Source: Escherichia phage SP27. Taken from it: a stretch of DNA of 64,000 nt. Positions within the stretch are counted from its first letter, which is position 1. Each line of letters opens with the position of its first letter. This document shows, piece after piece, positions 2,182-45,939 of this stretch. The position numbers were made by a program, and so were the translations under genes. The DNA lies in sequence record LC494302.1; one strand, 5' to 3'. The notes below the pieces were generated by a model. It searched no databases. It worked only from the letters and a program-made list of their open reading frames with translations, and was not told where the DNA came from.

Positions 2182-2841
2182 ATGAAACTTAATGCACACA
2201 GCAAACAATACCTTAAGCACTTTAAGTACCTCAACAGTATTCAAGCAGAATCTATTACATCTGCATATACGTATCACCCAAATGTACTAAAGAAACGAAA
2301 TAAAAAGAAAAAATCCAGAAATGTTCTCGTATCTAAGAACCTCAAATCGTACTTGAAGAAAAATAATATAGCTCTTGCTTTTATTAATATCTATAATACT
2401 GATTTAAAAGTATTGAGTACTAATACCAGCACAAAAGCACTAAAGAATGCATCTATCTATATACACATGGATAATATCCCGTGCACTATAATTCTATCTT
2501 TCGGGAATGTATACTTCTTCGGGAATTGTAATAGCACCCATGATATCAGTACTGCACAATTCCAAATCGGCGATATGTACTGCATGGGTTCAGAAAAAAT
2601 ACACGATAACATGCACTTCTTCCAAAAGCAACGTACTAACGAAACTGATACAGTACTGCAATTCCTCAAAGAATTACAAGGCAAAGAATTATCAGAAGAA
2701 GATCTATTCATGTACAGTACTGTAATCGATAATCCAGAACTCTATAAAAACGCGTACAATCTAACAAAACATGTACAGGAACTTATCAGTACTGATAAGA
2801 AATTTCATCACCTCATTACGTATATTTCAAACTATGTATAA
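2182..2841 (+). CDS. hypothetical protein, family C-like member embedded in family A array
   Basis: 219 aa; contains EEDLFMYSTVID resembling the family C motif. Confidence 0.55.
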   Translation: MKLNAHSKQYLKHFKYLNSIQAESITSAYTYHPNVLKKRNKKKKSRNVLVSKNLKSYLKKNNIALAFINIYNTDLKVLSTNTSTKALKNASIYIHMDNIPCTIILSFGNVYFFGNCNSTHDISTAQFQIGDMYCMGSEKIHDNMHFFQKQRTNETDTVLQFLKELQGKELSEEDLFMYSTVIDNPELYKNAYNLTKHVQELISTDKKFHHLITYISNYV

Positions 2842-3016
2842 AGAATACTACAAAGATAAAATCCCAATGCATCTACAACACCATATACCAAACGTTGCAT
2901 TGGGTATCAAAGATCACGCAAAGATAATGTTCCAACAATGTACTAAGTACACGCTCATATACGATGATAATCCATATATGCTGTACTACGTAGTAATGCT
3001 AACATTCAGGTACTAA
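2834..3016 (+). CDS. hypothetical small protein, paralog family A
   Basis: start placed at ATG 2834 (MYKEYY); C-term VVMLTFRY. Confidence 0.55.
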   Translation: MYKEYYKDKIPMHLQHHIPNVALGIKDHAKIMFQQCTKYTLIYDDNPYMLYYVVMLTFRY

Positions 3017-3017
3017 T

Positions 3018-3197
3018 ATGAATACTTATAAAGAATTCTACCTCTCGTACCTTAATTCCGATATAGTAACATCCAATACATTCAGTACTAAAATTATCTA
3101 TAATGAATTAATGAAAGAATGTATTAAAGGTGCTATTAACCCTAAAGATACGTATGACTTGTACTATGCAGTACTAACCCTTGTTTTCACGAAATAA
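3018..3197 (+). CDS. hypothetical small protein, paralog family A (59 aa, below ORF-track cutoff)
   Basis: read by hand: MNTYKEFYLSYL...; fills gap. Confidence 0.5.
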   Translation: MNTYKEFYLSYLNSDIVTSNTFSTKIIYNELMKECIKGAINPKDTYDLYYAVLTLVFTK

Positions 3198-3205
3198 CAC
3201 ATAAT

Positions 3206-3397
3206 ATGAATAACCACAAAGAATACTACATAGAGAAACTCCCAATGTATCTCCAACACCTTGTACCAACAGAACCATTGGGTATAGAAAAAAACTACGA
3301 AAAAGACTACTTCATTCAGTGCACTAAATCCTCGATATATATTGAAGACTATAATCGAGTACTGTATCACATCCTTTTACTAATATATAGGTACTAA
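3206..3397 (+). CDS. hypothetical small protein, paralog family A
   Basis: MNNHKEYYIEKLP; C-term ILLLIYRY. Confidence 0.6.
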   Translation: MNNHKEYYIEKLPMYLQHLVPTEPLGIEKNYEKDYFIQCTKSSIYIEDYNRVLYHILLLIYRY

Positions 3398-3398
3398 T

Positions 3399-3581
3399 AT
3401 GCACAAAGAATACTACACACAATTTCTCCCCAGCATTTTTGAACACTACGCCAGATACAAAGTCCCTATGGATAACGATTTGGCAGTACTGGGATTCAAT
3501 AACTGCATAGAACGAAGTATAGAAAATAGTAGTAGTTATGACCAGCTATATAACACTATCCTACTTATATTCAGGTACTAA
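3399..3581 (+). CDS. hypothetical small protein, paralog family A
   Basis: MHKEYYTQFLP; FNNCIERSIEN; ILLIFRY. Confidence 0.6.
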   Translation: MHKEYYTQFLPSIFEHYARYKVPMDNDLAVLGFNNCIERSIENSSSYDQLYNTILLIFRY

Positions 3582-3582
3582 C

Positions 3583-3771
3583 ATGCATAAAGAATACTAC
3601 ACAAAATATTTCCCAATGTACCTCAGAACTAATCTATTAGATAAACCTCGCGGTATCAATGCACAAAATGATAAAGTGTATTTTACTATGTGCACTAAAG
3701 CATGTATACTAGATTTTGACAGCTACCATCGAGTACTGTATCATACCCTGTACCTAGCTTTCGTATTCTAA
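3583..3771 (+). CDS. hypothetical small protein, paralog family A
   Basis: start at ATG 3583 (MHKEYYTKYFP), 1 nt after upstream stop as at other junctions. Confidence 0.6.
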   Translation: MHKEYYTKYFPMYLRTNLLDKPRGINAQNDKVYFTMCTKACILDFDSYHRVLYHTLYLAFVF

Positions 3772-3780
3772 GAGAACAAT

Positions 3781-3966
3781 ATGCATAAAGAATTCTACTT
3801 AAGCCATCTGGATCTAAACTCCCAAATGCTTATACCACTAATCCCAATAGATATCAAGGATAAGAAAAATACCGAACAATTCATTTACCATACACAGTGT
3901 GCGATCACCCCAAATTACATTCCATATGAATTGTACTACATTATCGCCCTAATATATAGGTACTAA
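3781..3966 (+). CDS. hypothetical small protein, paralog family A
   Basis: MHKEFYLSHL; C-term IIALIYRY. Confidence 0.6.
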   Translation: MHKEFYLSHLDLNSQMLIPLIPIDIKDKKNTEQFIYHTQCAITPNYIPYELYYIIALIYRY

Positions 3967-3967
3967 T

Positions 3968-4153
3968 ATGCATAGAGAATACTACACACAATTTGTTAAA
4001 GGGAACTACAAACATGCCGTACCCAGAACCCCTTTAAATTCTCATGACCCAAGTACTATATTCTTGTTTAATGACGCAATACGTACAGTACTCAATACTA
4101 AAGATGAAGATGTGCAGTACGTATTCTTACTATTACTTATATACAGACACTAA
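3968..4153 (+). CDS. hypothetical small protein, paralog family A
   Basis: MHREYYTQF; FNDAIRTVLN; LLLLIYRH. Confidence 0.6.
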   Translation: MHREYYTQFVKGNYKHAVPRTPLNSHDPSTIFLFNDAIRTVLNTKDEDVQYVFLLLLIYRH

Positions 4154-4158
4154 CTAAT

Positions 4159-4341
4159 ATGAATAAAGAACATAAAGAATTCTATATACGAAAACTAACA
4201 TTCGTCCCCGTAAGAATATATAAAGAATGCGACCCAAGATTATACCTATGGCACTTCAATGAGTGCATAAAAGATTCTATATACCATAAGAACTATAAAG
4301 AACAATTGTGCTCAGTACTAACACTAGTACTATCATATTAA
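4159..4341 (+). CDS. hypothetical small protein, paralog family A
   Basis: MNKEHKEFYIRKL; FNECIKDSIYH. Confidence 0.6.
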   Translation: MNKEHKEFYIRKLTFVPVRIYKECDPRLYLWHFNECIKDSIYHKNYKEQLCSVLTLVLSY

Positions 4342-4356
4342 TTAATAGAGAATACT

Positions 4357-4548
4357 ATGTATAAAAACTTCTATATAAGTAAACTAAAAGAAAATGAACA
4401 AGTATGGATTAGATCTATAATTCCACTGGCATTTAATAGATATGCATTTAACAGATGTACCGAGATTGCTATAGACCCTTATAATATTAAAGAGAATGTA
4501 CAGTATAATCAGTACTACTATATCTTAATGCTTATATATAGAAAGTAA
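4357..4548 (+). CDS. hypothetical small protein, paralog family A
   Basis: MYKNFYISKL; FNRCTEIAID; ILMLIYRK. Confidence 0.6.
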   Translation: MYKNFYISKLKENEQVWIRSIIPLAFNRYAFNRCTEIAIDPYNIKENVQYNQYYYILMLIYRK

Positions 4549-5185
4549 TTAAACACATAGAGACAGGGGAAGCTCCTAGTGAACAACCTTTATGTACAGG
4601 CGAATTGTTAAAATTCAGCCTGGACAAATGCGATCACTAGGATTCTCCCCAGGCTAAACCCCGTAATCATAGGTAGTCATAAGTAATCATATATAAACAT
4701 TTATATGAGCACCGTAGAATCACAGAATGATTATATATGATTCAGTACTGATTAGTATAGACAAGAATGCTCAAGAATGCACGGGAAGGATTCAGAATGA
4801 TTCAGTACTGATATGCCACTAAGTAGGCAGAGGAAGTCTGCCGTACTTTGTAGTTTCCAAGCTCCTTTTCCATTTTGCAAATTACATCAAATGTAATCAA
4901 AAGTAATCACGCAATGATTAGTACTGAATTATTACTTTCACCTTAATTTCAATTACCCCTTTACCCTTCGGGGTAAAATTCAATTACCCCTTGAGGCTCC
5001 AGCAAAAAGTTGGTTAGTACTCCATCCTAAATCTGGATCGTAAAAAATTTGGAGTACCTATGAAATAAAAGTTGGATCTTCGAAAGTTGAAATTTACGTT
5101 GGGACATATAGGATTTGTGGGATATAATGAGTTTTGTAGCGATACAGATTATACGATTTCAGTACTGAATAATGAAAGAAAGCTA

Positions 5186-5213
5186 TTGACATTATGATTC
5201 AGTACTGTATAAT
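5186..5213 (+). promoter_or_regulatory. orphan sigma70-like promoter with no downstream ORF
   Basis: TTGACA 5186-5191, 16 bp spacer containing AGTACTG, TATAAT 5208-5213. Confidence 0.5.
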
Positions 5214-5549
5214 GTTCTACATAGGGTGATGAGTTGCTGCGAACAATTCATTTACTCTACCTCCTGTCGTGAGACAGTACAGAAAAGATAGTTCCTCCTG
5301 TGGTGGTACATCTTTTTGAACCTCATATGAAAATCGTAATAACAGTACTGATATTAACAGAATGGTGTCAGTACTGATTTTAATCTAAAGCATTATGCCA
5401 CCAGCACAAGTTGGTGGATTCCCTCTAACAGTATTCAGTACTACATGATAGTCTTCATCCTCCTAGGGTAACATAGTGAGGGCTATGATGGCAGTACTGA
5501 ATACTCCCTTTCAAAAGATAGATCTATGGTATAGTACTGACGGATTTTG

Positions 5550-5745
5550 GGTGTAGTTACCCTGGATGGATTTTGGACGTAGATATGTCTAGCCCTCCAG
5601 AAGTCTGGAAGTAAAGATGGCTATCCATCTAGACGGCTAAACGGATAGATTTCTGGATGGCTGGATGGCTAGACGTTTGGACGGCTAAACGGCTAGATGG
5701 TTACACGTCTGGAAGTATAGACGGCTAAATCAAAATTTTATTTTG
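5550..5745. repeat. cluster of short direct repeats (iteron-like)
   Basis: GACGGCTAAA x3, TCTGGAAGTA x2, several GGATGG/CCATCC and CTAGACG motifs within about 200 bp, locally GC-richer. Confidence 0.5.
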
Positions 5746-5950
5746 TTTTTTCCAATAGTTCCCCTACCGCGTGGGGATAGTTTCCCCGCAGTATCTGGAG
5801 TTAGATTTTTCTGAATCTGGAATCATTATCTTATAAACTGGGGGCAATGTCAACGGCCTGGACGGATATTTTTAAAAATTTTTTCAGTACTGAATTTTGG
5901 GCGTAACTATGCACCCGGTGGGCTTGAGTCTTTCTCGACTTGATGGAACT

Positions 5951-5978
5951 ATTATACAGTACTGAAAAAATAAAGCAA
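5951..5978 (-). promoter_or_regulatory. minus-strand sigma70-like promoter
   Basis: reverse complement reads TTGCTT-16-TATAAT; transcribes leftward through a GCACCCGGTGGG element. Confidence 0.4.
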
Positions 5979-6166
5979 TACCCTGGAAGCAAAAAAGTTT
6001 TAATTAATTTGCTTGCTATCCTGGGCCGGACTATGGTACTATATTTCAGTACTGAGAAAGTGCGTTTACCTGCTAGGGTGCGGGAGTGTATCCTTTTTTT
6101 ATATCTTGAATTTTGGGCGTAATTCCGCACCCTCTGGGGTTTCCGCTTTCTCGCGTCTATGTAGTA

Positions 6167-6194
6167 ATTATACGCTTTTTCAGGATCAAGTCAA
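6167..6194 (-). promoter_or_regulatory. minus-strand sigma70-like promoter
   Basis: reverse complement reads TTGACT-16-GCGTATAAT. Confidence 0.45.
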
Positions 6195-6349
6195 TACCTA
6201 AAAACAAAATAATTGAAAATAATTTAACGCGTTTAAACGGCCCGTAACGCCCTGGAATGATTAGAATGGTGCAAATGTATAGCTTAGGTGTATTAATGCG
6301 TTAGAATGCGTCTGAGGCCGTTTTATGGGGTGTAGTAGTGATTTGGTTG

Positions 6350-6440
6350 ATTCAGTACTGAATAATAGTACTCCTATATAGAAAGATAGTTCCCCTGGAT
6401 GGTTGCAGTACTGAATAATAGTACTCCTATATAGAAAGAA
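6350..6440. repeat. direct repeat of about 34 bp, two copies
   Basis: CAGTACTGAATAATAGTACTCCTATATAGAAAGA occurs twice about 55 bp apart. Confidence 0.7.
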
Positions 6441-6470
6441 AACTATTTTAAAAGTATTTGTAGAAAGTAC

Positions 6471-6530
6471 TTGCACCGTACTGATAAAAGCGTATAATGT
6501 TTTACATCGAGAGCGGGAACACTTCCCGCT
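6471..6530 (+). promoter_or_regulatory. class I early promoter plus 5' stem-loop cassette
   Basis: TTGCAC 6471-6476, TATAAT 6493-6498, GTTTTACATC; hairpin AGCGGGAAcacTTCCCGCT 6512-6530. Confidence 0.65.
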
Positions 6531-6553
6531 ACACATTAAGAGAGATTAAAACG

Positions 6554-6916
6554 ATGGCGACTCAAATCAATAAAATCATGCTTAACCTGGTAAACTTCCG
6601 CGATGAGATGAAAGGTCTTCCGGCTGAAACTGTAAAAATTCACATTGCAGCTTATCGGGAACTTATTGCAATGTTGCCGCTTAAGCGTGAACAATACGCC
6701 GCTACTTTGATGCTGGATTCAATGATCCATATAATGATCTCAAATGATTTAACGATGGTTTATCAGTACATGGGCGAAAATTTCGCGGTGTGTAGTAAGC
6801 CAGTACCAGGGATGGCAACAACTGAGGAATTGCACGGCTTAAACTTAAAACAAGATGCATGGGATAATATGCCTCGTTTCCTGGTATGGGCTGACAGTGG
6901 CAAAATTTACAAATAA
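6554..6916 (+). CDS. hypothetical protein
   Basis: start at ATG 6554 (MATQINK) downstream of cassette; 120 aa. Confidence 0.6.
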   Translation: MATQINKIMLNLVNFRDEMKGLPAETVKIHIAAYRELIAMLPLKREQYAATLMLDSMIHIMISNDLTMVYQYMGENFAVCSKPVPGMATTEELHGLNLKQDAWDNMPRFLVWADSGKIYK

Positions 6917-6930
6917 GTTTAATAAAGTAC

Positions 6931-6989
6931 TTGCAAACTATGTTTAATGGCGTATAATGTTTTACATCAGGTGGGGAATAGTTCCCCAC
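6931..6989 (+). promoter_or_regulatory. class I early promoter plus 5' stem-loop cassette
   Basis: AAAGTACTTGCAA -35, GCGTATAAT -10 at 6953-6958; hairpin GTGGGGAAtagTTCCCCAC 6971-6989. Confidence 0.7.
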
Positions 6990-7008
6990 TATATAAGAGG
7001 ATTAAAAA

Positions 7009-7248
7009 ATGGCTAAATCAAAAATGTTCTTAGGTCACAAAAACAAAACTCATTGGAATGTAAGCCTGTGGATTAATAACGATGAGGGATTGTATCGGTT
7101 GGCCCTGGACTTTATTGCCGCCAATACTAATCGCAATGATGCGGCCCGTCATATGATGTTATTTTTAGAACAGACTGGACAAGATAAAACACCGGACGGA
7201 TTCAAATATAGCACTACTGCGATCCGTGCGGCGATGGTTGGAATGTAA
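7009..7248 (+). CDS. hypothetical protein, paralog of 9050..9289
   Basis: shares HKNKTHWNVSLWINN and TPDGFKYSTTAIRAAMVGM with the 9050 gene. Confidence 0.65.
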   Translation: MAKSKMFLGHKNKTHWNVSLWINNDEGLYRLALDFIAANTNRNDAARHMMLFLEQTGQDKTPDGFKYSTTAIRAAMVGM

Positions 7249-7334
7249 TAGAATTTATTTAAAGTACTATCATTTTTTTGCGATAGTACTTTATAATAGT
7301 GTTTTATTCATACACCAACGATAAGGGCAACAGC

Positions 7335-7601
7335 ATGAATATTAAGTATTTTGCGACGCGTGAACAAGCTCGGATCGCCGCACGCCAGGACGGGGCAACG
7401 TTTAAAGATATGGGAGCGGGATCGGCAAGTGGTGAACGTTGGGCCATTGTAAAGCGTAGTACGGCCAGATCTTTACAGTACTGGTTAGCGGCCTTAAAAA
7501 GTCCCGATAGTGTATCGCGTCGAGTGGTAGAAATAAAGCTCGACCGAAAGGGCAACCGCGTGACCGTGTACCGTACTAAAAAGATTGCAGTACTTGAATA
7601 A
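7335..7601 (+). CDS. hypothetical protein, paralog of 20376..20771
   Basis: shares FATREQARIAAR..GETFKDMG and DRKGNRVTVY; start at ATG 7335. Confidence 0.6.
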   Translation: MNIKYFATREQARIAARQDGATFKDMGAGSASGERWAIVKRSTARSLQYWLAALKSPDSVSRRVVEIKLDRKGNRVTVYRTKKIAVLE

Positions 7602-7608
7602 AAAGTAC

Positions 7609-7667
7609 TTGCAAACTATGTTTAATGGCGTATAATGTTTTACATCGAGAGCGGGAACACTTCCCGC
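7609..7667 (+). promoter_or_regulatory. class I early promoter plus 5' stem-loop cassette
   Basis: TTGCAA 7609-7614, TATAAT 7631-7636; hairpin GCGGGAAcacTTCCCGC 7651-7667. Confidence 0.7.
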
Positions 7668-7688
7668 CTATAACCTGGAGTAATAAAA

Positions 7689-7919
7689 ATGACTAATATG
7701 TATATGACTGAAGTTAAAACCGTAAAAGATACTACCACGAATAAAACTACTTACTTACAGCGGATCTGTGGTGTATGGCAACGTATCAGCAAATCAAAGT
7801 ACTTTAAATTAACATCATATGCAAATCGTTCGGATTCATTCAGTACTGAAATAAAAGGTAATAAAGTACACCAATACGGCACTTATTATTATTATAGCCT
7901 GGACGCGATTGCAGTATAA
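7689..7919 (+). CDS. hypothetical protein
   Basis: GGAG RBS; 76 aa. Confidence 0.55.
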   Translation: MTNMYMTEVKTVKDTTTNKTTYLQRICGVWQRISKSKYFKLTSYANRSDSFSTEIKGNKVHQYGTYYYYSLDAIAV

Positions 7920-7957
7920 GCAGTTTACAAATCTTTACAATTGCCGGTATTGACTTA

Positions 7958-7988
7958 TTTTGTCAGTACTGGCATAATGTATTCATTG
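7958..7988 (+). promoter_or_regulatory. class II promoter (TTGACT ... AGTACTGGCATAAT)
   Basis: ATTGACTtattttgtcAGTACTGGCATAAT; no ORF downstream; faces a minus-strand promoter. Confidence 0.45.
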
Positions 7989-8093
7989 GCAGATAAGCCG
8001 TAGCCCATAGGGTGCGGGAGTGTATCTATAGAAAAAGTAGTTTAGTATAGTTACAATTGTGCACCCGGTGGGTTAGCTGTTGTCATGGGGTAT

Positions 8094-8122
8094 ATTATGC
8101 CAGTACTTGATAATGCTGTCAA
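8094..8122 (-). promoter_or_regulatory. minus-strand class II promoter, convergent with the 7958 promoter
   Basis: reverse complement reads ATTGACAgcattatcaAGTACTGGCATAAT. Confidence 0.45.
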
Positions 8123-8168
8123 TACTTTTTTTTTAATATTCAGTACTGAAAACTATTTTTAAAAAGTA

Positions 8169-8196
8169 CTTGCAAACTATGTTTAAAGGCGTATAA
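8169..8196 (+). promoter_or_regulatory. class I early promoter
   Basis: AAAAGTACTTGCAAactatgtttaaaGGCGTATAATGTTTTACATC. Confidence 0.65.
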
Positions 8197-8205
8197 TGTT
8201 TTACA

Positions 8206-8277
8206 TCAGGACGGGGAACGAAATAAGTAACTTCCCGTTAAGTAGCCCAGGAGTAAGGCACACGAAAAACTCCCCTG
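8206..8277 (+). other. conserved structured RNA-like element, copy 1
   Basis: CAGG-ACGGGGAA...TTCCCGT...CTCCCCTG nested complementarity; near-identical copy at 19183-19251. Confidence 0.4.
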
Positions 8278-8287
8278 ATAAAATAGT

Positions 8288-8315
8288 TTGACAATTGTTT
8301 TTAAAAGCGTATAAT
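8288..8315 (+). promoter_or_regulatory. sigma70-like promoter
   Basis: TTGACA 8288-8293, 16 bp spacer, TATAAT 8310-8315. Confidence 0.6.
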
Positions 8316-8347
8316 ACTTACATCAACTACTGAATGAGGGTTACAAA

Positions 8348-8959
8348 ATGAAAACTATCACTACTACTACTTATGTTATGGCTTTTTCTGAATTGAACGC
8401 AGAACAACAAACGTCAGCTATCGAACTGGTTCGGGAACGTGAAAAAAACTTAAACGATGATTATTTTTCTGAAAGTGAAATTGAATACTATAAAGAAACA
8501 GTACTACCGGAATATGGCATTAATGACGCTGAAATACAATTCAGTGGCTTTTGGTCCCAGGGTGACGGTGCATCAATCAGTACTGACCACGTTGACGCAG
8601 TGAAGTTTTTACGCAAGGTAAGAGCATTAACTAAGTATCGCTCAATCCGTCACTTGCTGAATGAAGATGATTTGGCGATGAGTGTAAAGCGTTCGCACTC
8701 CCACTACTCGCATGAGAATACTGTAAGCGGGTACATTGAATCGGCTTACACTGATTTAACCGCAAAACAAGAAACGTTAGTTAATGAGCTTGAGGAACTA
8801 CTCACTGAAACTATTCGTGAATTATCCCGCAAGTTGTACCGTGATTTAGAGAATGCATATGAGGATCAATTCACTACTGAAAACATTACGGCACTGATTG
8901 AGGGTAACGAATATCAATTCAATGTTATTGATGGAGTAGTAGAATCAATCGAATATTAA
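8348..8959 (+). CDS. hypothetical acidic protein
   Basis: 203 aa; GAGGG RBS; no family recognised. Confidence 0.6.
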   Translation: MKTITTTTYVMAFSELNAEQQTSAIELVREREKNLNDDYFSESEIEYYKETVLPEYGINDAEIQFSGFWSQGDGASISTDHVDAVKFLRKVRALTKYRSIRHLLNEDDLAMSVKRSHSHYSHENTVSGYIESAYTDLTAKQETLVNELEELLTETIRELSRKLYRDLENAYEDQFTTENITALIEGNEYQFNVIDGVVESIEY

Positions 8960-8971
8960 TTTAAAAAGTAC

Positions 8972-9031
8972 TTGCAAACTAAGTTTAAAAGCGTATAATA
9001 CTTTATATCGAGGCGGGGAGTGGTTCCCCGC
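8972..9031 (+). promoter_or_regulatory. class I early promoter plus 5' stem-loop cassette
   Basis: TTGCAA 8972-8977, TATAAT 8994-8999; hairpin GCGGGGAgtggTTCCCCGC 9013-9031. Confidence 0.65.
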
Positions 9032-9049
9032 TCAAACGAGGATTTAAAA

Positions 9050-9289: not shown

Positions 9290-9328
9290 TATTCAGTACT
9301 GAGATAATGGCGGGAACTATTACCCGCC
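9279..9328 (+). promoter_or_regulatory. promoter plus stem-loop
   Basis: TTGGAA 9279-9284, AGTACTGAGATAAT -10; hairpin GGCGGGaactattaCCCGCC 9309-9328. Confidence 0.4.
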
Positions 9329-9346
9329 TTTACTGAGGGTTATCTA

Positions 9347-9634: not shown

Positions 9635-9651
9635 GTACTAAGGATTATATA

Positions 9652-38026: not shown

Positions 38027-38027
38027 T

Positions 38028-38222: not shown

Positions 38223-38230
38223 GGTAAAAA

Positions 38231-39090: not shown

Positions 39091-39100
39091 GGAAAGTACA

Positions 39101-39652
39101 ATGAGTTCAATGAGTTTATTAGATACATTAGAAAAAGACAGAAGTGCAATTAAGCGTTTAAAAGAGCAAGTACAAAAGATTGTATACAACGTTGATAAGT
39201 TTGAAGTCCCAGGAAGATTTGGTGATATTTCCCATACGGAGATCAAATCCCTTAAGTCAGATTTGTTGATTAAAAATAAAAATGGGTTGATTTTAGTTTT
39301 GAGTTCAGATATGATGGGGGCAACACATAGTTATAATGCAGTATCGGTGCGTTCAGAGTGTGAAGGTATATATCTATCACAGGGTTTCAATAGCGAGACA
39401 CAGGTTTGTTTTTGTGATGCAGTACATGACCCTATGAAGTTCACGAGAAGTGAAGCCCAAGCGTTATTAGAGCTATCAGACGAGAGTTTGTTTCAGTACA
39501 GTACAATGTATGACAATGATAAGCTTCGTTGTATGTACGCTGTAAAGCATTATACACATGAGTTCTCTGGATTTGCATACCTTTTAGTTAGAACCAATAC
39601 CAGATATATTGATATGTTAGAAGATTACATCGATAAAGTTGTTAATGTATGA
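39101..39652 (+). CDS. hypothetical protein, paralog family C
   Basis: start at ATG 39101 (MSSMSLLD) after AAGGAAAG; motif DESLFQYSTMYD. Confidence 0.55.
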   Translation: MSSMSLLDTLEKDRSAIKRLKEQVQKIVYNVDKFEVPGRFGDISHTEIKSLKSDLLIKNKNGLILVLSSDMMGATHSYNAVSVRSECEGIYLSQGFNSETQVCFCDAVHDPMKFTRSEAQALLELSDESLFQYSTMYDNDKLRCMYAVKHYTHEFSGFAYLLVRTNTRYIDMLEDYIDKVVNV

Positions 39653-39834
39653 TGTATGATTATGTGATGGGATAATGCTGATGAAAGAGTTATTTGAAGA
39701 TCAGTTCAATGCATATGTGGATAATATTCTTTATTCCAGTCGTGCCAGTCAACGAGGAAATCGTGCTTACAACATAGATTACCTATTAACGGTGCTGAGT
39801 TCACAGTACACCTACGCTGTACAGAGGACATATT

Positions 39835-40038
39835 ATGAATAATTTTAGAGATGTTGCTAAGGAGAAGTTCAAGTGCAGTTTAGATTACGGTTTAAATGAT
39901 TTTCTTACATGCACAATGTACAGGAATGATGATTATGAGCAATCCGTAATTTCGTTGCACAGATATTTCGAAATAATTTACGCAAGATATCTTAGAAGGT
40001 TAGATGGGATAGGGGATTGGAATTATGATTACGTTTGA
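39835..40038 (+). CDS. hypothetical small protein
   Basis: AGAGGA RBS; 67 aa. Confidence 0.45.
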   Translation: MNNFRDVAKEKFKCSLDYGLNDFLTCTMYRNDDYEQSVISLHRYFEIIYARYLRRLDGIGDWNYDYV

Positions 40039-40234
40039 AGAGCCGGAAGTGTTAAGTTCGCATAGTATTAAGGGTTTTGAATACATGATGGATTTGATTT
40101 TGAAGGATACATATTTGGTTCAGAGTGTAGATAATACGGTACACCGAGTATTGAATTTATACGAGATGACGAGTCGAAGGCTTTGTGCTATGAAAAGGAT
40201 TGAAGAAATCAAGCTTTCTAGGCTGAATAAATAG
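40025..40234 (+). CDS. hypothetical small protein
   Basis: 69 aa; overlaps previous. Confidence 0.4.
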   Translation: MITFEEPEVLSSHSIKGFEYMMDLILKDTYLVQSVDNTVHRVLNLYEMTSRRLCAMKRIEEIKLSRLNK

Positions 40235-40433
40235 AGACGTTTCATTTTTACAGGCCGCTGGGGGGGGTCAAAAAAATTTCCGCTGAAAAACATGCTAAGG
40301 TATATGTTTAATATAAAGTTTTATATTGTGTTTTTCAGAGTACAGTTCATGTTTCCTGAAACAAAAAATACCCCGCCCCCGCAACGTGCTCCTTATATTG
40401 GAGTTTACCTTATTAATTATAGTAGAGATTAAG

Positions 40434-40811
40434 ATGGAAATAAAATATAATGAATTTTGTGCAAGGACATGGATGTACACTGGTGAGTTAGTTACGCACT
40501 CTAACTTATACAAGGGTGATTTAAACTACGCTAGGGACAAGATTTTAAAGTACTGGAATGCTGACTTTTATTTGATGGATTTTAGTACTGGGTTTCATGG
40601 GATATCTATCGAGATGCCGGACTATACAGTACTTGATGATGCTGCACTGTTCCAGGAGGCATTAGTATTTGATAAGAAGTACATCTGTACATTAGAAGAG
40701 ATGATTGAATTACAGCGTAGAATTAAATGTATTCACAGGGAATGTATAGATATCTGGTGCAGTACTGGTGAGGCCGATTTCTGGAAATTTTTTAATCTAG
40801 GAGAAGAGTGA
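40434..40811 (+). CDS. hypothetical protein, paralog family C
   Basis: start at ATG 40434 (MEIKYNEF); motif DAALFQEALVFDKKY. Confidence 0.55.
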   Translation: MEIKYNEFCARTWMYTGELVTHSNLYKGDLNYARDKILKYWNADFYLMDFSTGFHGISIEMPDYTVLDDAALFQEALVFDKKYICTLEEMIELQRRIKCIHRECIDIWCSTGEADFWKFFNLGEE

Positions 40812-41167
40812 TGGAATTTGATTTTTTAATATCAGTACATACTTTCAAGCACAGTTATCAGTACTTTTGTAATTTAAACAAAGGTGATTTAATGCACAGT
40901 GCGAATGAGTATATTCATTACACTCAGGGTAAATTTACATTCATTGATTACAGTTCATTACAGTATCCACACCAAGATATGCCGGACTATACATTAATGG
41001 ATACCGCAGAACTATTCCAAGAATCATTAGTATTTGATAAGAAGTACTTGTGTACATTTGAAGAAGTTATTGCAATACAAAATGAAATGAAAGAGTATGC
41101 TGCTTTGCATAAACCCAATTCAAGTATTAATCAAGAATACAAATTCAATTTAGGAATTCAAGAATGA
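40808..41167 (+). CDS. hypothetical protein, paralog family C
   Basis: motif TAELFQESLVFDKKY. Confidence 0.6.
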   Translation: MMEFDFLISVHTFKHSYQYFCNLNKGDLMHSANEYIHYTQGKFTFIDYSSLQYPHQDMPDYTLMDTAELFQESLVFDKKYLCTFEEVIAIQNEMKEYAALHKPNSSINQEYKFNLGIQE

Positions 41168-41523
41168 CATATGATTATTCTATGTACTATTATAAGTTAC
41201 CTAAAGGATGGGACTTGTGCTGTAATCTTATTAAGGGCGACTCGGAACATGAGTTGAGTTTATATATGCATTACAAAGATTCTTGTTTTAAATTTATTCA
41301 TGTATCACATGACGACTATGACTATGAATCTGAGAGTCTTATAGATTATACAGTACTGGACGATGGCGAACTATTTCAGGCTGCATTAGTGTTTGATAAG
41401 AATAAGTACTCCTGTACATTTGAAGAAATGGTTTCTTTGCAAAATGAAATGAAGAGATTTGAAAAAGAAAACGTATTTAATCCATCCCCATCAAGAACGA
41501 ATAATTATTATTTCAATATATGA
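41164..41523 (+). CDS. hypothetical protein, paralog family C
   Basis: motif DGELFQAALVFDKNKY. Confidence 0.6.
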   Translation: MTYDYSMYYYKLPKGWDLCCNLIKGDSEHELSLYMHYKDSCFKFIHVSHDDYDYESESLIDYTVLDDGELFQAALVFDKNKYSCTFEEMVSLQNEMKRFEKENVFNPSPSRTNNYYFNI

Positions 41524-41532
41524 GATTATAAA

Positions 41533-42024
41533 ATGACATTACAGAGTTCATTGGAAAAAGCAAAGAAGATTCATGAGTACATGAATATGGCAAAAGAAGG
41601 TTCAGTTTACGGTGTTTTCAAAGACACAAGTACTCAATATTATGTACCGGATAACCTCCTTTATAATGACTGCTCAGATACAGAAACGTGCGTACTGGAT
41701 ACAGAAACGTGTGTACTGGATACCGACCCTAATGATTATGAATGCTACATTAATATGCATAATGAGTACATGGTCTATATTAATGATACAGATACCATCA
41801 ACAGTACTGACAGCGATTCCAATGACATTATAATTCCGAGTGAAGTACTGGAAGGTCCGTGGGATAGTGAAGAGTATTACTTCCAACAAAGTACTGTATA
41901 TGATAATGAAGTACTTGATGTTATTATAATTATGTGGTACTTTAAAAGTATTGGTTCTGGGAACTTCTATTTCGATTACAAATACGTAAAGAAAACTGTA
42001 GATAACGGTATTAACAGGGGTTGA
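41533..42024 (+). CDS. hypothetical protein, paralog family C (EEYYFQ subgroup)
   Basis: VLEGPWDSEEYYFQQSTVYDNEVLDVIIIMWYFKSIGSGNFYFDYKYV. Confidence 0.65.
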   Translation: MTLQSSLEKAKKIHEYMNMAKEGSVYGVFKDTSTQYYVPDNLLYNDCSDTETCVLDTETCVLDTDPNDYECYINMHNEYMVYINDTDTINSTDSDSNDIIIPSEVLEGPWDSEEYYFQQSTVYDNEVLDVIIIMWYFKSIGSGNFYFDYKYVKKTVDNGINRG

Positions 42025-42025
42025 A

Positions 42026-42496
42026 ATGAGTTTAGAAAGAGCATTAGAGATTGCGAAGTTAATTGATTTATGCAGCAAAGAAATTGTAGCAAATTGTCTT
42101 AATGGATATCTATTCAAGGAAGGTAAATCTTATTGTCGAATGAGATACGATGACAGTAGTGAGTACATTCACATGTATGAAGAAAACTTAGATTCTTCTG
42201 AAACAACACTCAATGGGTGTGATGTTAATTTGGAAGATAATTACATGTACTTCTGTCGTGATGCTGATATTTTAATACAAGATTCTGACATTATATCTGG
42301 TGCAGCAGAGAAACATCTTCCGTATTCAGTACTGGATAATGACTGGGGAAGTGAAGAGTTCTACTTCCAGCAGAATACTATCTACGAGGAATATGTGCTT
42401 GACAAGCTTGTCATTCTGTGGTACTTTAATAATACCGATTGTCCTAGCTTCTATCTGGACTTGGATCTACTACGAGTTATTAAAGAGGATATATGA
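42026..42496 (+). CDS. hypothetical protein, paralog family C (EEYYFQ subgroup)
   Basis: VLDNDWGSEEFYFQQNTIYEEYVLDKLVILWYF. Confidence 0.65.
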   Translation: MSLERALEIAKLIDLCSKEIVANCLNGYLFKEGKSYCRMRYDDSSEYIHMYEENLDSSETTLNGCDVNLEDNYMYFCRDADILIQDSDIISGAAEKHLPYSVLDNDWGSEEFYFQQNTIYEEYVLDKLVILWYFNNTDCPSFYLDLDLLRVIKEDI

Positions 42497-42936
42497 GTTT
42501 AGCAAGTGCACTTAAACTGGCACACAAAATACATCACTTCCACGATAACATAAAAAGTGGTTTCTATGGTGATAAAGTAAGTGCATTTGGTAATGAGTAT
42601 TATCTATCAGGTATAAAGACATACTCTGATGATATTTTACTTATGGGCCATGATAAAGACAATACTATACAGTACTCTTCATGTAGTCAATATACTAGTT
42701 TTTTTGTATATATTCCAGGTACTAAGATTACGTTTGACACATCAAATACACCTGTTGACTTCGGGGTACTTGATGGCCCGTGGGGTACTGAAGAGTATTA
42801 CTTCCAACAGAGTCTTATTTTTAACCAAGAAATGCTTGATTCCTTGGTTGTTTTGTGGTACTTTAAGGAATTGAAGTTTGAACCATTTTTTCTTGACTGG
42901 GGAGCATGTGAATATTTAAGTACAGGGGATTTGTAA
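42493..42936 (+). CDS. hypothetical protein, paralog family C (EEYYFQ subgroup)
   Basis: VLDGPWGTEEYYFQQSLIFNQEMLDSLVVLWYF. Confidence 0.65.
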   Translation: MSLASALKLAHKIHHFHDNIKSGFYGDKVSAFGNEYYLSGIKTYSDDILLMGHDKDNTIQYSSCSQYTSFFVYIPGTKITFDTSNTPVDFGVLDGPWGTEEYYFQQSLIFNQEMLDSLVVLWYFKELKFEPFFLDWGACEYLSTGDL

Positions 42937-43427
42937 TGTCGTTACAAAGTGCATTGAAAGAAGCAAAGAAGATTCATGAGTACATGATTATGGTACAGGA
43001 AGGTTCAGTACCTGGGGTGTATAAAACATCTGATACTGAATTTTTTGTAAAAGACCGTGACGATTATGACGAGTCCGAGATATGTGCAGAAACATTAGTA
43101 CTGCACACTGATACTGGTGACAGTGATAACTGTGAATATCATATGTACAATCAGTACATTAGTTATTGCCGTAATGAAGATATTACCATCTACAACACAG
43201 ATAGTGATGCTGATGACACTATCATTCCTTATTCAGTACTGGAAGGACCGTGGGATAGTGAAGAATATTACTTCCAGAATAGTACGTTGTACAATGAAGA
43301 AGAACTGGATGTTATTGTGATTATGTGGTACTTTAAAAGTATTGGTTCTGATAGTTTCTATTTCGATTATGAATACGTAGAGAATACTGTAGGGGAAGAT
43401 AATGTCATTACAAAGTGCACTGGATAA
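42936..43427 (+). CDS. hypothetical protein, paralog family C (EEYYFQ subgroup)
   Basis: VLEGPWDSEEYYFQNSTLYNEEELDVIVIMWYFKSIGSDSFYFDYEYV. Confidence 0.65.
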   Translation: MSLQSALKEAKKIHEYMIMVQEGSVPGVYKTSDTEFFVKDRDDYDESEICAETLVLHTDTGDSDNCEYHMYNQYISYCRNEDITIYNTDSDADDTIIPYSVLEGPWDSEEYYFQNSTLYNEEELDVIVIMWYFKSIGSDSFYFDYEYVENTVGEDNVITKCTG

Positions 43428-43845
43428 AGCAAAAGAACTACAGGTATATATTGAAGATATCAAGGCTGGGAAGTTCGAAGAAGTATACAAAGCCGAGAAT
43501 GGTAACTACTACAAGGATAGTGATTTTACCACAACTACAGTTATTCTTGGGCTGAATTCCAAAAGTCCCGCAGATTTTTCACAATACAATCCAGATGCAG
43601 AATTTATCAGTTATGCTTATGGTGGTGAAATCCGTTTTTATAATCGCAGCAGACCTTTAAAATTGAACTTTGAAGTACTGAAAGGTCCGTGGGATAGTGA
43701 AGAGTATTACTTTCAGAATAGTACTTTGTATGATGATGAAGTACTAGATACTTTAGTTATTATGTGGTACTTTAAAAGTATTGATAGTACAAGATTTTAT
43801 TTGGATTATGAATATGTACGTGAAGCATATAAGGGCAAACGATGA
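43402..43845 (+). CDS. hypothetical protein, paralog family C (EEYYFQ subgroup)
   Basis: VLKGPWDSEEYYFQNSTLYDDEVLDTLVIMWYFKSIDSTRFYLDYEYV. Confidence 0.65.
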   Translation: MSLQSALDKAKELQVYIEDIKAGKFEEVYKAENGNYYKDSDFTTTTVILGLNSKSPADFSQYNPDAEFISYAYGGEIRFYNRSRPLKLNFEVLKGPWDSEEYYFQNSTLYDDEVLDTLVIMWYFKSIDSTRFYLDYEYVREAYKGKR

Positions 43846-44156
43846 AATTCTTATACAGTATTCAGTACATTCCTGGTACAATTAGTTTAATGTATTTCTT
43901 CGATCATGATAATTTCCAGCACCTTGCCGTTAGAAGATGTAATGAATCTTTAATGATTGAATATCTTCACGATTGTGATTATATTCCTGACTTCCTTGAA
44001 TGTGATTACAGAGATGATCATGAAACATTTCTTTTTCAGGAATCACTTGTATGGGATAAGAGAATTAATTTTTATGCTTTACTTGAGATACAAAAACAAG
44101 TGAAGTACTACTGGGATTACTTAATTACCCAAGAATATATAGAGATTGAAATATAA
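43842..44156 (+). CDS. hypothetical protein, paralog family C
   Basis: motif HETFLFQESLVWD. Confidence 0.55.
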   Translation: MKFLYSIQYIPGTISLMYFFDHDNFQHLAVRRCNESLMIEYLHDCDYIPDFLECDYRDDHETFLFQESLVWDKRINFYALLEIQKQVKYYWDYLITQEYIEIEI

Positions 44157-44629
44157 TGTACGAAAGTGATCTTAAGCACGCTGAGGAATTAGTTAATATA
44201 GTAAAGTTCTTTCAAAATAATGTAAAGTACTTAGACGACAAAGGGGCATATATTAGTACTATAAGTGTTGGTACAGATATTCTAGGATTAGGTAATGAAT
44301 ATAAGTACGAGTCCCATGATTATGATTTGGAATTCAAGTACTTCGAATGGAATCCTGGAACTTTCTATTCAATCGATGAAAGTGGGAAATATTTTGAATT
44401 CACCGAAGAAGACGTACTATTCTTAAATTCAGAAGATGCTTACTTCCAGTACAGTACTATATACCCAAATAGTGCATTAAGAGCTTTAGTAGTTTTTAAT
44501 GCATTTCTGAAAGAGAACTTTAATAATTCTATATTCATTGATTTAAATTATGTATATGAACTAAATCAGGTGATATATATGGAGTCCAGAAAAAATGAGT
44601 TACGAAAGTGCAATCAAGAAAGCAAATGA
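44156..44629 (+). CDS. hypothetical protein, paralog family C
   Basis: motif EDAYFQYSTIYP. Confidence 0.55.
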   Translation: MYESDLKHAEELVNIVKFFQNNVKYLDDKGAYISTISVGTDILGLGNEYKYESHDYDLEFKYFEWNPGTFYSIDESGKYFEFTEEDVLFLNSEDAYFQYSTIYPNSALRALVVFNAFLKENFNNSIFIDLNYVYELNQVIYMESRKNELRKCNQESK

Positions 44630-45041
44630 TATTCTAAAAGTTGTTAAGTTCTTCAAAGAAAATCCTGAATACGTAGATGATGAACGAAGAGAAGTTTCTA
44701 ATGGCACGAAGATTACAATTGATTCTTTATTTGACACTAGCAACAACAACTGTAGTACTATTGAATTAGCATACGATTATATTTCATTGAACAGAAAATA
44801 TGATGAAGTTACGATAGAGCGTCATGAGAATGAAGAATCTTTTAAAATTTCTGATATTTTATCTCTGAGTACAGAAGAAGGGTACTTCCAGGGAAGTACT
44901 GTTTATAATGAAGGAACACTAGACAATCTATGTACATTTAGTGTACTATATCAGAAGTCAGTACTGGATATATTTTATCTAGACACTGAAAAACTTGATA
45001 GGTTAGTTGATTTCGTTACTATAGAAGAGGCATCCGTTTGA
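44595..45041 (+). CDS. hypothetical protein, paralog family C
   Basis: motif EEGYFQGSTVYN. Confidence 0.55.
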   Translation: MSYESAIKKANDILKVVKFFKENPEYVDDERREVSNGTKITIDSLFDTSNNNCSTIELAYDYISLNRKYDEVTIERHENEESFKISDILSLSTEEGYFQGSTVYNEGTLDNLCTFSVLYQKSVLDIFYLDTEKLDRLVDFVTIEEASV

Positions 45042-45574
45042 GAAAAATTAACATTAATGATTATGATGCATTACAAGATTTATCAAAAAAGATTCGCACT
45101 ATCGTACCAGTACTGAAGAAATGCAGTACTGGATTAATCGATCCTAGTACTGTTGTTAATGAGAAGTACAATTTTCATTATGTATTACAGGGTACTGGGG
45201 CATTCCAGAAGTGTGAGGTGCGTGAGAAACACGTAATTGATACATCATTGTTTTCTATTGGTGCACCTATGTCGAATAATACTATTTTCCTGGATGACGC
45301 AGGAAATATTCAACAATTAACATTTAAGAAAAGGAAAAAGAACAATAACATTGGTGTGTACGCGATGAAGTGGGGTCAACCTGATTTGAAGCGTGAAATT
45401 CACATCCCTAAGTACAATTACAATTCATTTGAAGAACAGTGCTTTCAACTATCGTGTACTGACCCTGACTATGCTATCATTCAGTTCTATATGGAATTGC
45501 AGATAGCATTTAACAGTAATTTGTATATTAACTTATTGGCGATTAACATTGATGAAGTATTCAAAAACATTTAA
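45038..45574 (+). CDS. hypothetical protein, paralog family C
   Basis: motif EEQCFQLSCTDP. Confidence 0.5.
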   Translation: MRKININDYDALQDLSKKIRTIVPVLKKCSTGLIDPSTVVNEKYNFHYVLQGTGAFQKCEVREKHVIDTSLFSIGAPMSNNTIFLDDAGNIQQLTFKKRKKNNNIGVYAMKWGQPDLKREIHIPKYNYNSFEEQCFQLSCTDPDYAIIQFYMELQIAFNSNLYINLLAINIDEVFKNI

Positions 45575-45770
45575 TCGAATTGAATACATGAGAACTGTGA
45601 GTGCAGTGTGGGACATATGGTTCACTACTAAACCAAAAATGGATTACCATGACTTTAAGCTCTTGTTCTTCGTTGGCTCTAACAAACAGGATGTTGCAAT
45701 GAAGGGTTATATTCAGCACTTACAGGAACTAATCCAGAAGAGAATATATGAAAATAATAGACCAAAATGA
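45549..45770 (+). CDS. hypothetical small protein, family B-like, embedded in family C array
   Basis: FFVGSNKQDVAMKGYIQHLQELIQKRI resembles family B core. Confidence 0.5.
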   Translation: MMKYSKTFNRIEYMRTVSAVWDIWFTTKPKMDYHDFKLLFFVGSNKQDVAMKGYIQHLQELIQKRIYENNRPK

Positions 45771-45939
45771 CATTGCTAAACTATTCAATATATATTCTAC
45801 TAGAATGATGCAAACAGACTCATATAGTACTGAATTCAAAGAGTTGAAAGTACTGATGTACTTAGGAACCCAATACCAAGAACAAGTTATTTTAGAATAT
45901 ATTAATTCGTTGAAGAAGGATATCCGTTATGTACGATGA
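45748..45939 (+). CDS. hypothetical small protein, family B-like, embedded in family C array
   Basis: motif LGTQYQEQVILEYINSLKKDI. Confidence 0.55.
   Translation: MKIIDQNDIAKLFNIYSTRMMQTDSYSTEFKELKVLMYLGTQYQEQVILEYINSLKKDIRYVR

Follow-up and report, generated by a model that had tools for sequence, protein, structure and literature searches.

Interleaved paralog families in a jumbo coliphage genome: an old, conserved arrangement with single-gene turnover

The window analysed here, a stretch of 64,000 nucleotides from Escherichia phage SP27 (LC494302.1), is part of the genome of a PBECO4/121Q-like, 'Rak2-like' jumbo coliphage of the genus Asteriusvirus, and its DNA is 96-98% identical to that of CRJP21, E9.1 and ELP-22. 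All of its genes are read from the + strand. All-versus-all BLASTP and iterated HMMs were employed on the + strand ORFs to define three families, A, B and C, which together take up about half of the window and about a tenth of the 350-kb phage genome. Family A has 17 genes of ~60 aa each at 566-4548 (BLASTP and HMM), family B has 29 genes of ~70 aa at 25848-31617, 32918-33372 and 45549-45939, and family C has 40 genes of 103-207 aa, dispersed over 31607-59507. The layout is best explained by a window that spans the end of the unique region (the A array), one copy of a terminal repeat of ~21 kb, and then the beginning of the unique region (the B array followed by the C region). The features are as follows.

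566..2171, + strand: family A array, part 1, 8 genes of ~60 aa (BLAST clusters, iterated HMM, phrog_11711)
2182..2841, + strand: 219-aa gene within the A array, putative remote relative of family C via its C-terminal core (hhalign, motif, synteny)
2771..4548, + strand: family A array, part 2, 9 genes (BLAST clusters, iterated HMM)
4800..25750, + strand: stretch equivalent to the terminal repeat, with boundaries that we infer from coordinate mapping to CRJP21, E9.1 and fEgEco12
25848..31617, + strand: main array of family B, with one unclassified ORF (27549-27797) among 25 B genes of 65-96 aa (BLAST, HMM, alignment)
31607..31951, + strand: embedded C gene of 114 aa (C114) at the end of the B operon (BLAST/HMM, phrog_13866)
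31917..32321, + strand: embedded C gene of 134 aa (C134) in a polymorphic slot (BLAST/HMM)
32323..32351, + strand: promoter-like site, TTGACA-17-TATAGT with TG, upstream of the ORF at 32381 (promoter scan)
32381..32626, + strand: 81-aa ORF lying between embedded C genes and unrelated to them, kept even in JNE01 (61%)
32599..32943, + strand: embedded C gene, likely start ATG at 32623 (BLAST, PHROG, synteny)
32918..33372, + strand: two B genes, 32918-33136 and 33106-33372, directly downstream of embedded C genes and mutual best paralogs
34079..59507, + strand: family C region, 37 C genes and about 20 unclassified ORFs (HMM, alignment)
41533..43845, + strand: five long C genes in a row, closely related to one another and the most recent tandem duplicates (repeats D4 and D5; DNA at most 81% identical over 209 nt)
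45549..45770, + strand: embedded B gene of 73 aa within the C region (HMM E 1.7e-7, phrog_4148, alignment)
45748..45939, + strand: embedded B gene of 63 aa within the C region (BLAST E 1e-7 to 26042, phrog_4148, alignment)

The stretch at 4800..25750, which stands between the A and B arrays, is the counterpart of the ~21-kb direct terminal repeat of relatives, measured at 20,993 bp in fEgEco12 (PMC13070987). It holds single genes, each downstream of a repeated module of sigma-70-like promoter and hairpin (repeat families D1-D3); overall, the promoter scan gave no enrichment over shuffles. Genes overlap at 82 of 111 array junctions, and 30-41% of the genes in each family start with ATGAA. In the main B array, most junctions are ATGA stop/start overlaps. 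In the C region, short forms of 103-137 aa are intermixed with long ones of 147-207 aa and several operons are predicted. The 'C array' is not pure, with about 20 internal ORFs outside families A, B and C.

Window proteins match PHROGs with best E values down to 1e-117: PHROG 4148 corresponds to family B, 9317, 12674 and 13866 to family C, 11711 to family A and 29152 to the gene at 2182-2841, all annotated as 'unknown function'. PHROG divides family C among several groups, which were joined here by HMM iteration. AF2 models were obtained for one representative each of families B and C. Family B is predicted to form a 4-helix bundle (pLDDT 96.7), and its signature, hhLGTNYQE...Y(I/L)xxL, has Q and L invariant in all 29 members. 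Family C is confidently predicted (pLDDT 89.3) as an N-terminal helix, a beta-sheet, a helix bearing FQ and C-terminal helices; its motif is (S/T)EE(E)x(F/Y/L)FQxS(L/T), with F113 invariant and Q114 at least 90% conserved. No PDB structure matched the predicted C fold, and neither structure nor sequence linked this family to a protein of known function. Structural matches came from Rak2-like jumbo phages only. Among 1.84 billion proteins, the lineage-restriction search gave 162 clusters at 50% identity; by a wide margin, the named members of sampled clusters were Asteriusvirus or wrongly labelled E. coli contigs about 350 kb long, and two entries labelled Actinomadura were partial exceptions.

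An earlier sequence-only reading had placed two B-like genes inside the C array and three C genes inside the end of the B array, and both assignments are confirmed. The B genes 45549-45770 and 45748-45939 match phrog_4148 (E of 8e-4 and 1.2e-16) and carry the B signature as FVGSNKQD...YIQHL and YLGTQYQE...YINSL, respectively. The C genes 31607-31951, 31917-32321 and 32599-32943 match the C PHROGs 13866 and 12674 (E to phrog_13866 of 1e-8, 4e-7 and 2e-39) and carry the motif EExxFQxS as SEEEYFQES, SEEEYFQYS and QEEELFQYS.

The same reading had a C-like gene interrupting the A array; this stands for the location, while the kinship to family C is only remote. The gene at 2182-2841 lies between the A genes 1992-2171 and 2771-3016, is kept in position in 35 of 35 records and has a dN/dS of 0.26-0.47. 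Neither BLAST nor HMM gave it a link at 1e-3 within the ORF set. When a profile of five orthologs was compared with the C profile by hhalign, a match was obtained with a probability of 90.7% and an E value of 1.2e-6, over only 38 columns; the same profile scored 0.1% each against A and B. The motif, LSEEDLFMYSTVID, is found at aa 169-182, with the core reading SEEDLFMYST (M in place of Q), and the JNE01 homolog, 36% identical, carries YSEDEMFQWSTII, with the canonical FQ (SEDEMFQWST). Because the C match spans 38 columns and leaves the N-terminal ~165 aa unmatched, the gene is probably C-like in its conserved core only. A short convergent or shuffled motif in a gene that is no family C homolog, leaving just two of the three embeddings real, is a rather unlikely alternative in our estimate. 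It would account for the shortness of the match, the separate PHROG, the single-sequence HMM score of just 6.6 bits and the basic pI of 9.3 (versus a median of 4.8 for the acidic C proteins), but 30 control profiles of unclassified orthogroups from the same region reached at most 44.9% against family C, and the motif is kept across 36%-identical orthologs, with the canonical FQ back in the divergent one. The unmatched N-terminal part would also suit this alternative, yet bona fide C members are likewise mutually unalignable there.

The interleaving is real, but comparison with relatives shows it to be old and conserved. The embedded genes have a normalised similarity of 0.13-0.32 to any paralog and an amino acid identity that does not exceed about 45% in alignments of more than 35 residues, and there has therefore been no recent copying from array to array; the exception, 57% over a motif stretch of 33 residues, is between the neighbours C114 and C134, each other's best paralogs. 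The family-order string is identical in four relatives (ELP-22, PBECO4, ph0011 and UE-S1) and colinear in the very divergent JNE01, in which array proteins are 27-70% and flanking genes 96-98% identical. The embedded genes occupy the same positions in every relative examined, and positional orthologs were found in JNE01 for 2182, 32599 (L010 6502-6822), 33106 and 45748 (L010 16819-17028). The B gene 45549-45770 is 96-100% conserved in four relatives. In JNE01 its best match is found elsewhere in the array, ~5.5 kb upstream of the corresponding site, which could reflect a real relocation of the unit.

The arrays consist of real coding genes under purifying selection, and so do the embedded genes (dN/dS of 0.14 for 45748-45939 and 0.23 for C114). 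Values of dN/dS are 0.32-0.40 for B and 0.26-0.29 for C, compared with 0.14-0.16 for neighbouring genes, so that selection in the arrays is purifying on average with a raised dN/dS. The genomes are otherwise nearly identical, and the arrays are where they diverge most. Their alleles are mosaic, with 100%-identical slots adjoining slots at 42-75%, and dS in the arrays is 2-3 times higher than in the terminal repeat for ph0011; for UE-S1 and PBECO4 the two are similar, with a ratio of 1.2-1.3 or less.

Variation at the B/C border centres on a slot at 31952-32321, which holds the C gene alone in 20 records, a B gene of 71-74 aa (B71) alone in five and both in six; C134 is thus present in 26 records and absent from five, and B71 is present in 11. 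Since six genomes carry both, the apparent 'swap' is the presence or absence of two adjacent genes. The promoter-like site at 32323..32351 forms the right edge of the slot, where homology between genomes resumes. The border order is C C. C B B in the window, C B. C C B B in ph0011, C B. C B B in UE-S1, C C B C. C C B in fEgEco12 and. B C B in JNE01. In fEgEco12, C114 is duplicated and the B gene 32918-33136 is missing; the latter gene has two alleles that are just 42% identical.

Tandem duplication has left its trace in both families. In 14 of 29 B genes and 8 of 40 C genes the closest paralog is an immediate neighbour, where about 2 are expected, and similarity declines as genes lie further apart in the array (permutation p 0.003-0.005). 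Young duplicates also occupy 28590-29084. Whole-gene deletions, insertions and tandem duplications were found among close relatives in both B and C: ELP-22 has one extra B copy and one extra C copy, C188 is missing from ph0011 and UE-S1, C179 is missing from ph0011, and UE-S1 has an extra unit. Whether a given indel is a gain or a loss was judged from 6-10 genomes without a rooted tree, and the direction of each event is provisional.

Inspection of junctions for shared microhomology, proposed along with the earlier reading, gave a divided result. At four clearly readable indel junctions, the breakpoints fall on the start codon of neighbouring genes or within their first codons, with 2-9 nt of microhomology; two further junctions are less clean. 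The microhomologies at gene starts are AT/ATG, TGAATT, ACAA and ATGCAAATG, while the B71 and C134 breakpoints are blurred by divergence and microhomology there is merely suggestive. Where the family switches, the junctions showed no repeated DNA, and the repeats inside arrays are only motif-coding stretches within genes. A Pfam scan of 30 ORFs found no recombinase, HNH or transposase domain; 20 non-family ORFs had no Pfam domain at E <= 0.01, and 10 family members had nothing relevant. The arrays do not qualify as a dedicated cassette-exchange system (integron, shufflon, DGR or homing endonuclease). A common recombination mechanism for all three families had been suggested, and what survives of this is that single-gene units recombine alike in B and C, by indels, duplications and start-codon breakpoints; a special shared mechanism is not supported, with no repeats at family-switch junctions and no recombinase in the 30 ORFs scanned.

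The view that the embedded genes are immigrants, moved by active exchange of units among the A, B and C arrays through one shared mechanism such as cassette shuffling, builds on the sequence-only reading, and we now regard it as improbable. One slot may indeed be occupied by a B gene, by a C gene or by the two together, but with both present in six genomes this reduces to two adjacent genes that come and go. ATGAA-type starts and overlapping stop/start signals are common to the unit borders of all families, and the displaced JNE01 match of 45549 would also suit exchange; yet no donor can be identified at the low identities given above, the embedded positions are kept across the genus including the deep JNE01 split, the embedded genes are under purifying selection, and junction repeats and, in the ORFs scanned, a recombinase gene are lacking. 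The A array offers no evidence for exchange, the conserved position of gene 2182 being the one observation that bears on it. Segmental duplication of mixed blocks, for example a B-B-C or B-C module, in place of single-gene events is likewise doubtful. Two B-B pairs (32918-33372 and 45549-45939) are each followed by C genes, with cross-similarity of 45549 to 33106 and of 45748 to 32918, and the neighbours C114 and C134 are mutual best paralogs. These cross-similarities are, however, very weak (normalised 0.18-0.27) with the order of best pairs inverted, the flanking non-family ORFs 33338 and 45038 are unrelated, and every present-day polymorphism seen involves a single gene.

The arrangement is more probably a 'gene accordion' of fast-evolving early genes, shaped by gain and loss of single genes and not by ongoing traffic between arrays. 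A, B and C would be lineage-specific multigene families that grew by tandem duplication and then diverged strongly, the duplicated units being single, tightly packed, translationally coupled genes. Such units may be gained and lost singly, either by unequal crossing-over between neighbouring paralogs or by illegitimate, microhomology-mediated recombination with breakpoints in the first codons, giving 'start-to-start' units. Divergent alleles could then spread slot by slot through homologous recombination between co-infecting relatives. The interleaving of families would be an old, largely fixed product of this process, and the B/C border may reflect differential loss from a zone already mixed.

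Comparable arrangements exist in eukaryotic viruses, namely the 'gene accordions' of poxviruses and the MGF 110/360/505 genes, which occupy the variable ends of the African swine fever virus (ASFV) genome. These share with the phage arrays tandem, partly intermixed paralog families beside terminal repeats, copy numbers that differ among close isolates via unequal recombination, and dispensable, fast-evolving genes. They differ in having unrelated proteins with documented roles in host range and immune evasion, and the phage units, at 60-200 aa, are far smaller and show translational coupling. Among phages, T4-like and T5-like genomes have hyperplastic or accessory regions of small early genes near genome ends or between core modules, which are mosaic among relatives, often through gene-by-gene exchange at short conserved junctions. 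Those regions are mostly unrelated ORFans, whereas here there are 30-40 paralogs of one family, in proposed start-to-start units.

A tandem gene array in phage 121Q, and in phage G, was noted by Hua et al. (2017, mBio; PMC5646251), and the remark was echoed for phAPEC6 (PMC7247149). The 121Q array belongs to the same genus and evidently to the same region as the window. The account of Hua et al. is one sentence, without the split into three families, the interleaving, the unit-level polymorphism, the breakpoints or the folds; the genes of the array described here are very dissimilar, at 25-45% amino acid identity.

The three families of the window are nearly confined to one phage lineage, and they reveal no new kind of genetic mechanism. 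As for function and time of expression, the array proteins would most likely be dispensable early proteins for host takeover or anti-defence, caught in an arms race. A bolder and still speculative reading would have B and C, the latter with at least 40 paralogs per genome, as a diversifying early host-interaction or anti-defence repertoire, varied by start-to-start single-gene recombination. It would be a phage counterpart of ASFV MGFs and poxvirus accordions, most active at the mixed B/C border. The arrays change by whole-gene steps at start codons, which offers a testable picture of the way in which genomes of jumbo phages inflate, and they are a place to look for determinants of host range or anti-defence.

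The window is 96-98% identical to CRJP21, E9.1 and ELP-22 (megablast) and falls in the genus Asteriusvirus, which holds the PBECO4, 121Q, G17 and phAPEC6-like jumbo coliphages of ~350 kb. Essentially all of its plausible genes lie on the + strand, and no Rfam family and no tRNA was found across its length. Mapping onto records with determined ends identified ~4.8-25.75 kb as the counterpart of the ~21-kb direct terminal repeat, the boundaries in the window being taken from relatives; the repeat of fEgEco12 measures 20,993 bp (PMC13070987). This puts the A array (566-4548) at the end of the unique region, ahead of the repeat; the B array starts ~100 bp after the repeat ends. In relatives, two minus-strand RCC1-like genes precede the A array. 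Two small ORFs (149-376 and 373-576) head this array, and neither joins family A by HMM or hhalign.

The three paralog families were defined on + strand ORFs by BLASTP clustering and iterated HMMs, and PHROG profiles, which are independent of this clustering, agree with the result.

Families and embedded genes
Family A, + strand: 17 genes of ~60 aa; PHROG 11711
Family B, + strand: 29 genes of ~70 aa; signature LGTNYQE...YIxxL; PHROG 4148
Family C, + strand: 40 genes of 103-207 aa; motif (S/T)EEx(Y/L)FQxS(L/T), nearly invariant; PHROGs 9317/12674/13866
31607-32943, + strand: three family C genes at the end of the B array
32918-33372, + strand: two more family B genes, following these
45549-45939, + strand: two family B genes within the C region
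2182-2841: gene within the A array, with its own PHROG, 29152

The sequence-only reading had placed the genes at 31607-32943 in family C and those at 45549-45939 in family B, and both placements hold, with E values of 1e-7 to 1e-39, far beyond chance. The A, B and C profiles show no relation to one another. The possibilities that B is a domain of C, or that A is kin to either, were rejected at hhalign probabilities of 0.1-0.6%, and unclassified ORFs of the C region were likewise rejected as members of B or C, their orthogroup profiles reaching 44.9% at most.

The gene at 2182-2841, which had been read as a C-like gene interrupting the A array, is a different case. Its position stands: every one of the 35 records with this gene has it inside the A array. 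Neither BLAST nor HMM searches linked it to family C. It carries LSEEDLFMYSTVID, and its JNE01 homolog (36% identical) carries SEDEMFQWSTII. A profile of five orthologs matches the C profile at an hhalign probability of 90.7% (E 1.2e-6) over 38 C-core columns, and scores 0.1% against both A and B; as a control, 30 other unclassified orthogroup profiles of the region reach no more than 44.9% against C. On this profile-profile match, the gene is accepted as a putative remote and partial relative of family C.

To date the interleaving, the order of the families was compared among relatives. The order B array, C C. C, B B, ..., C run, B B, C run (the dot being an unrelated 81-aa ORF, 32381-32626) is common to ELP-22, PBECO4, ph0011 and UE-S1, with deviations of single units only. 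In the more divergent JNE01 (329000-355583, compared with window 24497-60000), proteins of the terminal-repeat genes that flank the arrays keep 96-98% identity and those of the arrays just 27-70%, yet gene order is still colinear. Positional orthologs there include the 81-aa ORF (61%), C 32599 (46%), B 33106 (31%), ORF 45038 (34%), B 45748 and C 45929. In Turkey5, identity is similarly low for the two genes compared, 2182 and one of the B genes. Against any window paralog, no embedded gene exceeds about 45% identity in alignments of more than 35 residues, the exception being the adjacent 31607 and 31917, with 57% over a 33-residue stretch. Their closest relatives are usually their own neighbours, and their dN/dS of 0.11-0.47 indicates purifying selection. 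Given this synteny, the JNE01 colinearity, the low paralog identity and the purifying selection, the embedding is for the most part older than the deepest genus split sampled. The arrays are either hypervariable islands or two ancient haplotypes exchanged as blocks.

The sequence-only reading had explained the embedding by exchange of gene units between arrays. This explanation is unsupported: no specific donor is identifiable among the window paralogs, the positions are conserved and paralog identity is low. Recombination of units is nevertheless evident within B and C. The best paralog is the adjacent gene in 14 of 29 B genes and 8 of 40 C genes (~2 expected), and paralog similarity drops with array distance (p 0.003-0.005), together a signature of tandem duplication. 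Numerous whole-gene differences were read from pairwise DNA comparison with relatives.

Unit gain and loss, and family order at the B/C border
ELP-22: one additional B copy and one additional C copy
C188 (34900-35466): missing in ph0011 and UE-S1
C179: missing in ph0011
UE-S1: additional unit at window 47450
44156 slot: other gene in PBECO4 and UE-S1
fEgEco12: C114 (31607-31951) duplicated, B72 (32918-33136) missing
Border order, window: C C. C B B
Border order, ph0011: C B. C C B B
Border order, UE-S1: C B. C B B
Border order, fEgEco12: C C B C. C C B
Border order, JNE01:. B C B

Variation peaks at the B/C border. Between the C114 stop (31951) and a promoter-like site at 32323, C134 (31917-32321) stands alone in 20 records, a 71-aa B gene (B71) alone in 5, and both together in 6; since 6 records hold both, the seeming swap of B for C comes down to two neighbouring genes that may each be present or absent. 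The first ~20 codons of C134 appear to be a hybrid left after loss of the neighbouring B71. Against its ELP-22 and PBECO4 orthologs, the dispensable C134 shows 12 nonsynonymous and 0 synonymous changes, which could reflect positive selection or relaxed constraint.

Readable breakpoints lie at the start codons of two adjacent genes or no more than a few codons downstream, so that an event adds or removes exactly one start-to-start unit, often leaving an in-frame hybrid N-terminus. Inspection of the junctions for microhomology, as had been proposed, found short ones at the readable breakpoints of B and C units: AT/ATG for the C107 unit, TGAATT for the extra unit of UE-S1, ATGCAAATG for the B duplication in ELP-22 and probably ACAA for the B71 loss in the window lineage. 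The junctions of C188 and C134 are less clean. Genes starting with ATGAA (30-41% in all families) and stop/start overlaps at 82 of 111 array junctions provide a short common sequence at the unit borders of every family, which is generic start-site sequence and not a dedicated recombination site. No DNA repeats were found at family-switch junctions; those within arrays are motif-coding stretches inside genes and a few young duplicates. Among 30 ORFs scanned, no HNH domain and no domain of a recombinase, integrase, transposase or reverse transcriptase was found. As to the common mechanism proposed for all three families, unit-level recombination is shared by B and C, and a special mechanism is unsupported. 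Overall, the interleaving is upheld as an observation, and its interpretation in that part only.

Among otherwise near-identical genomes, orthologous slots switch between ~100% and 42-75% aa identity. At 32918-33136, 29181-29432, 44156-44629 and 26654-26866, alleles are 27-74% identical and neighbouring genes 97-100%. Pooled dS in the arrays is 2-3 times that of the terminal repeat in the ph0011 comparison, and similar (at most 1.2-1.3 times) in those with UE-S1 and PBECO4. Slot-wise replacement of alleles, through homologous recombination between co-infecting relatives, could account for this pattern, as could faster divergence or the two combined. Terminal-repeat genes have a pooled dN/dS of 0.14-0.16, and the arrays have higher values, 0.32-0.40 in B and 0.26-0.29 in C; array members are real genes under weaker or more variable constraint.

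The promoter scan gave total counts no higher than shuffles, and only the high-scoring promoter-like sites in intergenic gaps, at 32323, 36305, 48316 and 52197, are worth considering. The terminal repeat holds a battery of predicted strong sigma-70-like promoters. A ~90-nt module recurs about 30 times in 5175-24900 (e.g. 6922-7011, 10110-10199, 14518-14607, 22132-22221). It is composed of AAAAAGTACTTGCA or TTGACA, 17 nt, TATAAT, a GC-rich hairpin (GGGGAGAAAnGGTTCTCCCC) and, last, a ribosome-binding site. The module precedes nearly every small terminal-repeat gene and is absent between genes of the B and C arrays. A ~95-nt element (GGGATTGACTCCGGTCAGTCCCTTTGCTATTATAT...CCCACAGGGTGCA...GTGTATCTA) has three copies (19006-19100, 21998-22092, 24254-24348), with shorter copies at 15035 and 16709; it has no Rfam match, and its layout suggests a promoter within a hairpin, with a conserved transcribed segment after it. 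Near the inferred left boundary of the terminal repeat, a run of 8/16-bp tandem repeats (GGATGGCT / AGACGGCT variants; 5567-5726) may be linked with packaging or with the physical end of the genome.

Pfam gave no above-threshold match for the family members or neighbours scanned. In the ph0011 record, the ortholog of 57260-57673 is a 'putative ADP-ribosyl transferase' (no Pfam match in the window gene) and that of 21358-21999 a 'protein kinase domain' (Pfam Pkinase E 0.005, below cutoff). AlphaFold2, fed with the window's own paralogs as alignment, gave confident models of one C representative (pLDDT 89.3) and one B representative (pLDDT 96.7, a 4-helix bundle). The C model matches only uncharacterised Rak2-like jumbo phage proteins in BFVD (121Q, RaK2, GAP32, Serratia BF, Yersinia fHe-Yen9-03). 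The invariant family C motif E-x-x-(Y/L)-F-Q-x-S was considered as a TEV/3C-like protease site and rejected, as it lies in a helix (residues 109-115) of the folded core (pLDDT 97), outside any exposed linker, with no protease nearby. Searched exhaustively by profile, 1.84 billion representatives yielded only 162 clusters; in those sampled, the great majority of named members come from Asteriusvirus or from ~350-kb contigs recorded as E. coli, with two partial sequences labelled Actinomadura. Family C is acidic (median pI 4.8), and A and B are basic (about 8.7-8.8). From the adjoining promoter-rich terminal repeat, the dispensable single units and the hypervariability, we infer that the arrays are probably early, dispensable host-interaction genes.

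The general phenomenon is akin to gene accordions, to the multigene families at the termini of large eukaryotic DNA viruses and to the hyperplastic regions of T-even phages. A literature search found no account of the three families or of how they interleave; it turned up a one-line remark by Hua et al. (PMC5646251) on a tandem gene array in 121Q, echoed by the phAPEC6 paper (PMC7247149). New here are the split into three unrelated families, the ancient and syntenic interleaving, the start-to-start indel units, the slot polymorphic for B and C genes, and the predicted folds. The arrays are a further, better-resolved example of a known genome architecture.
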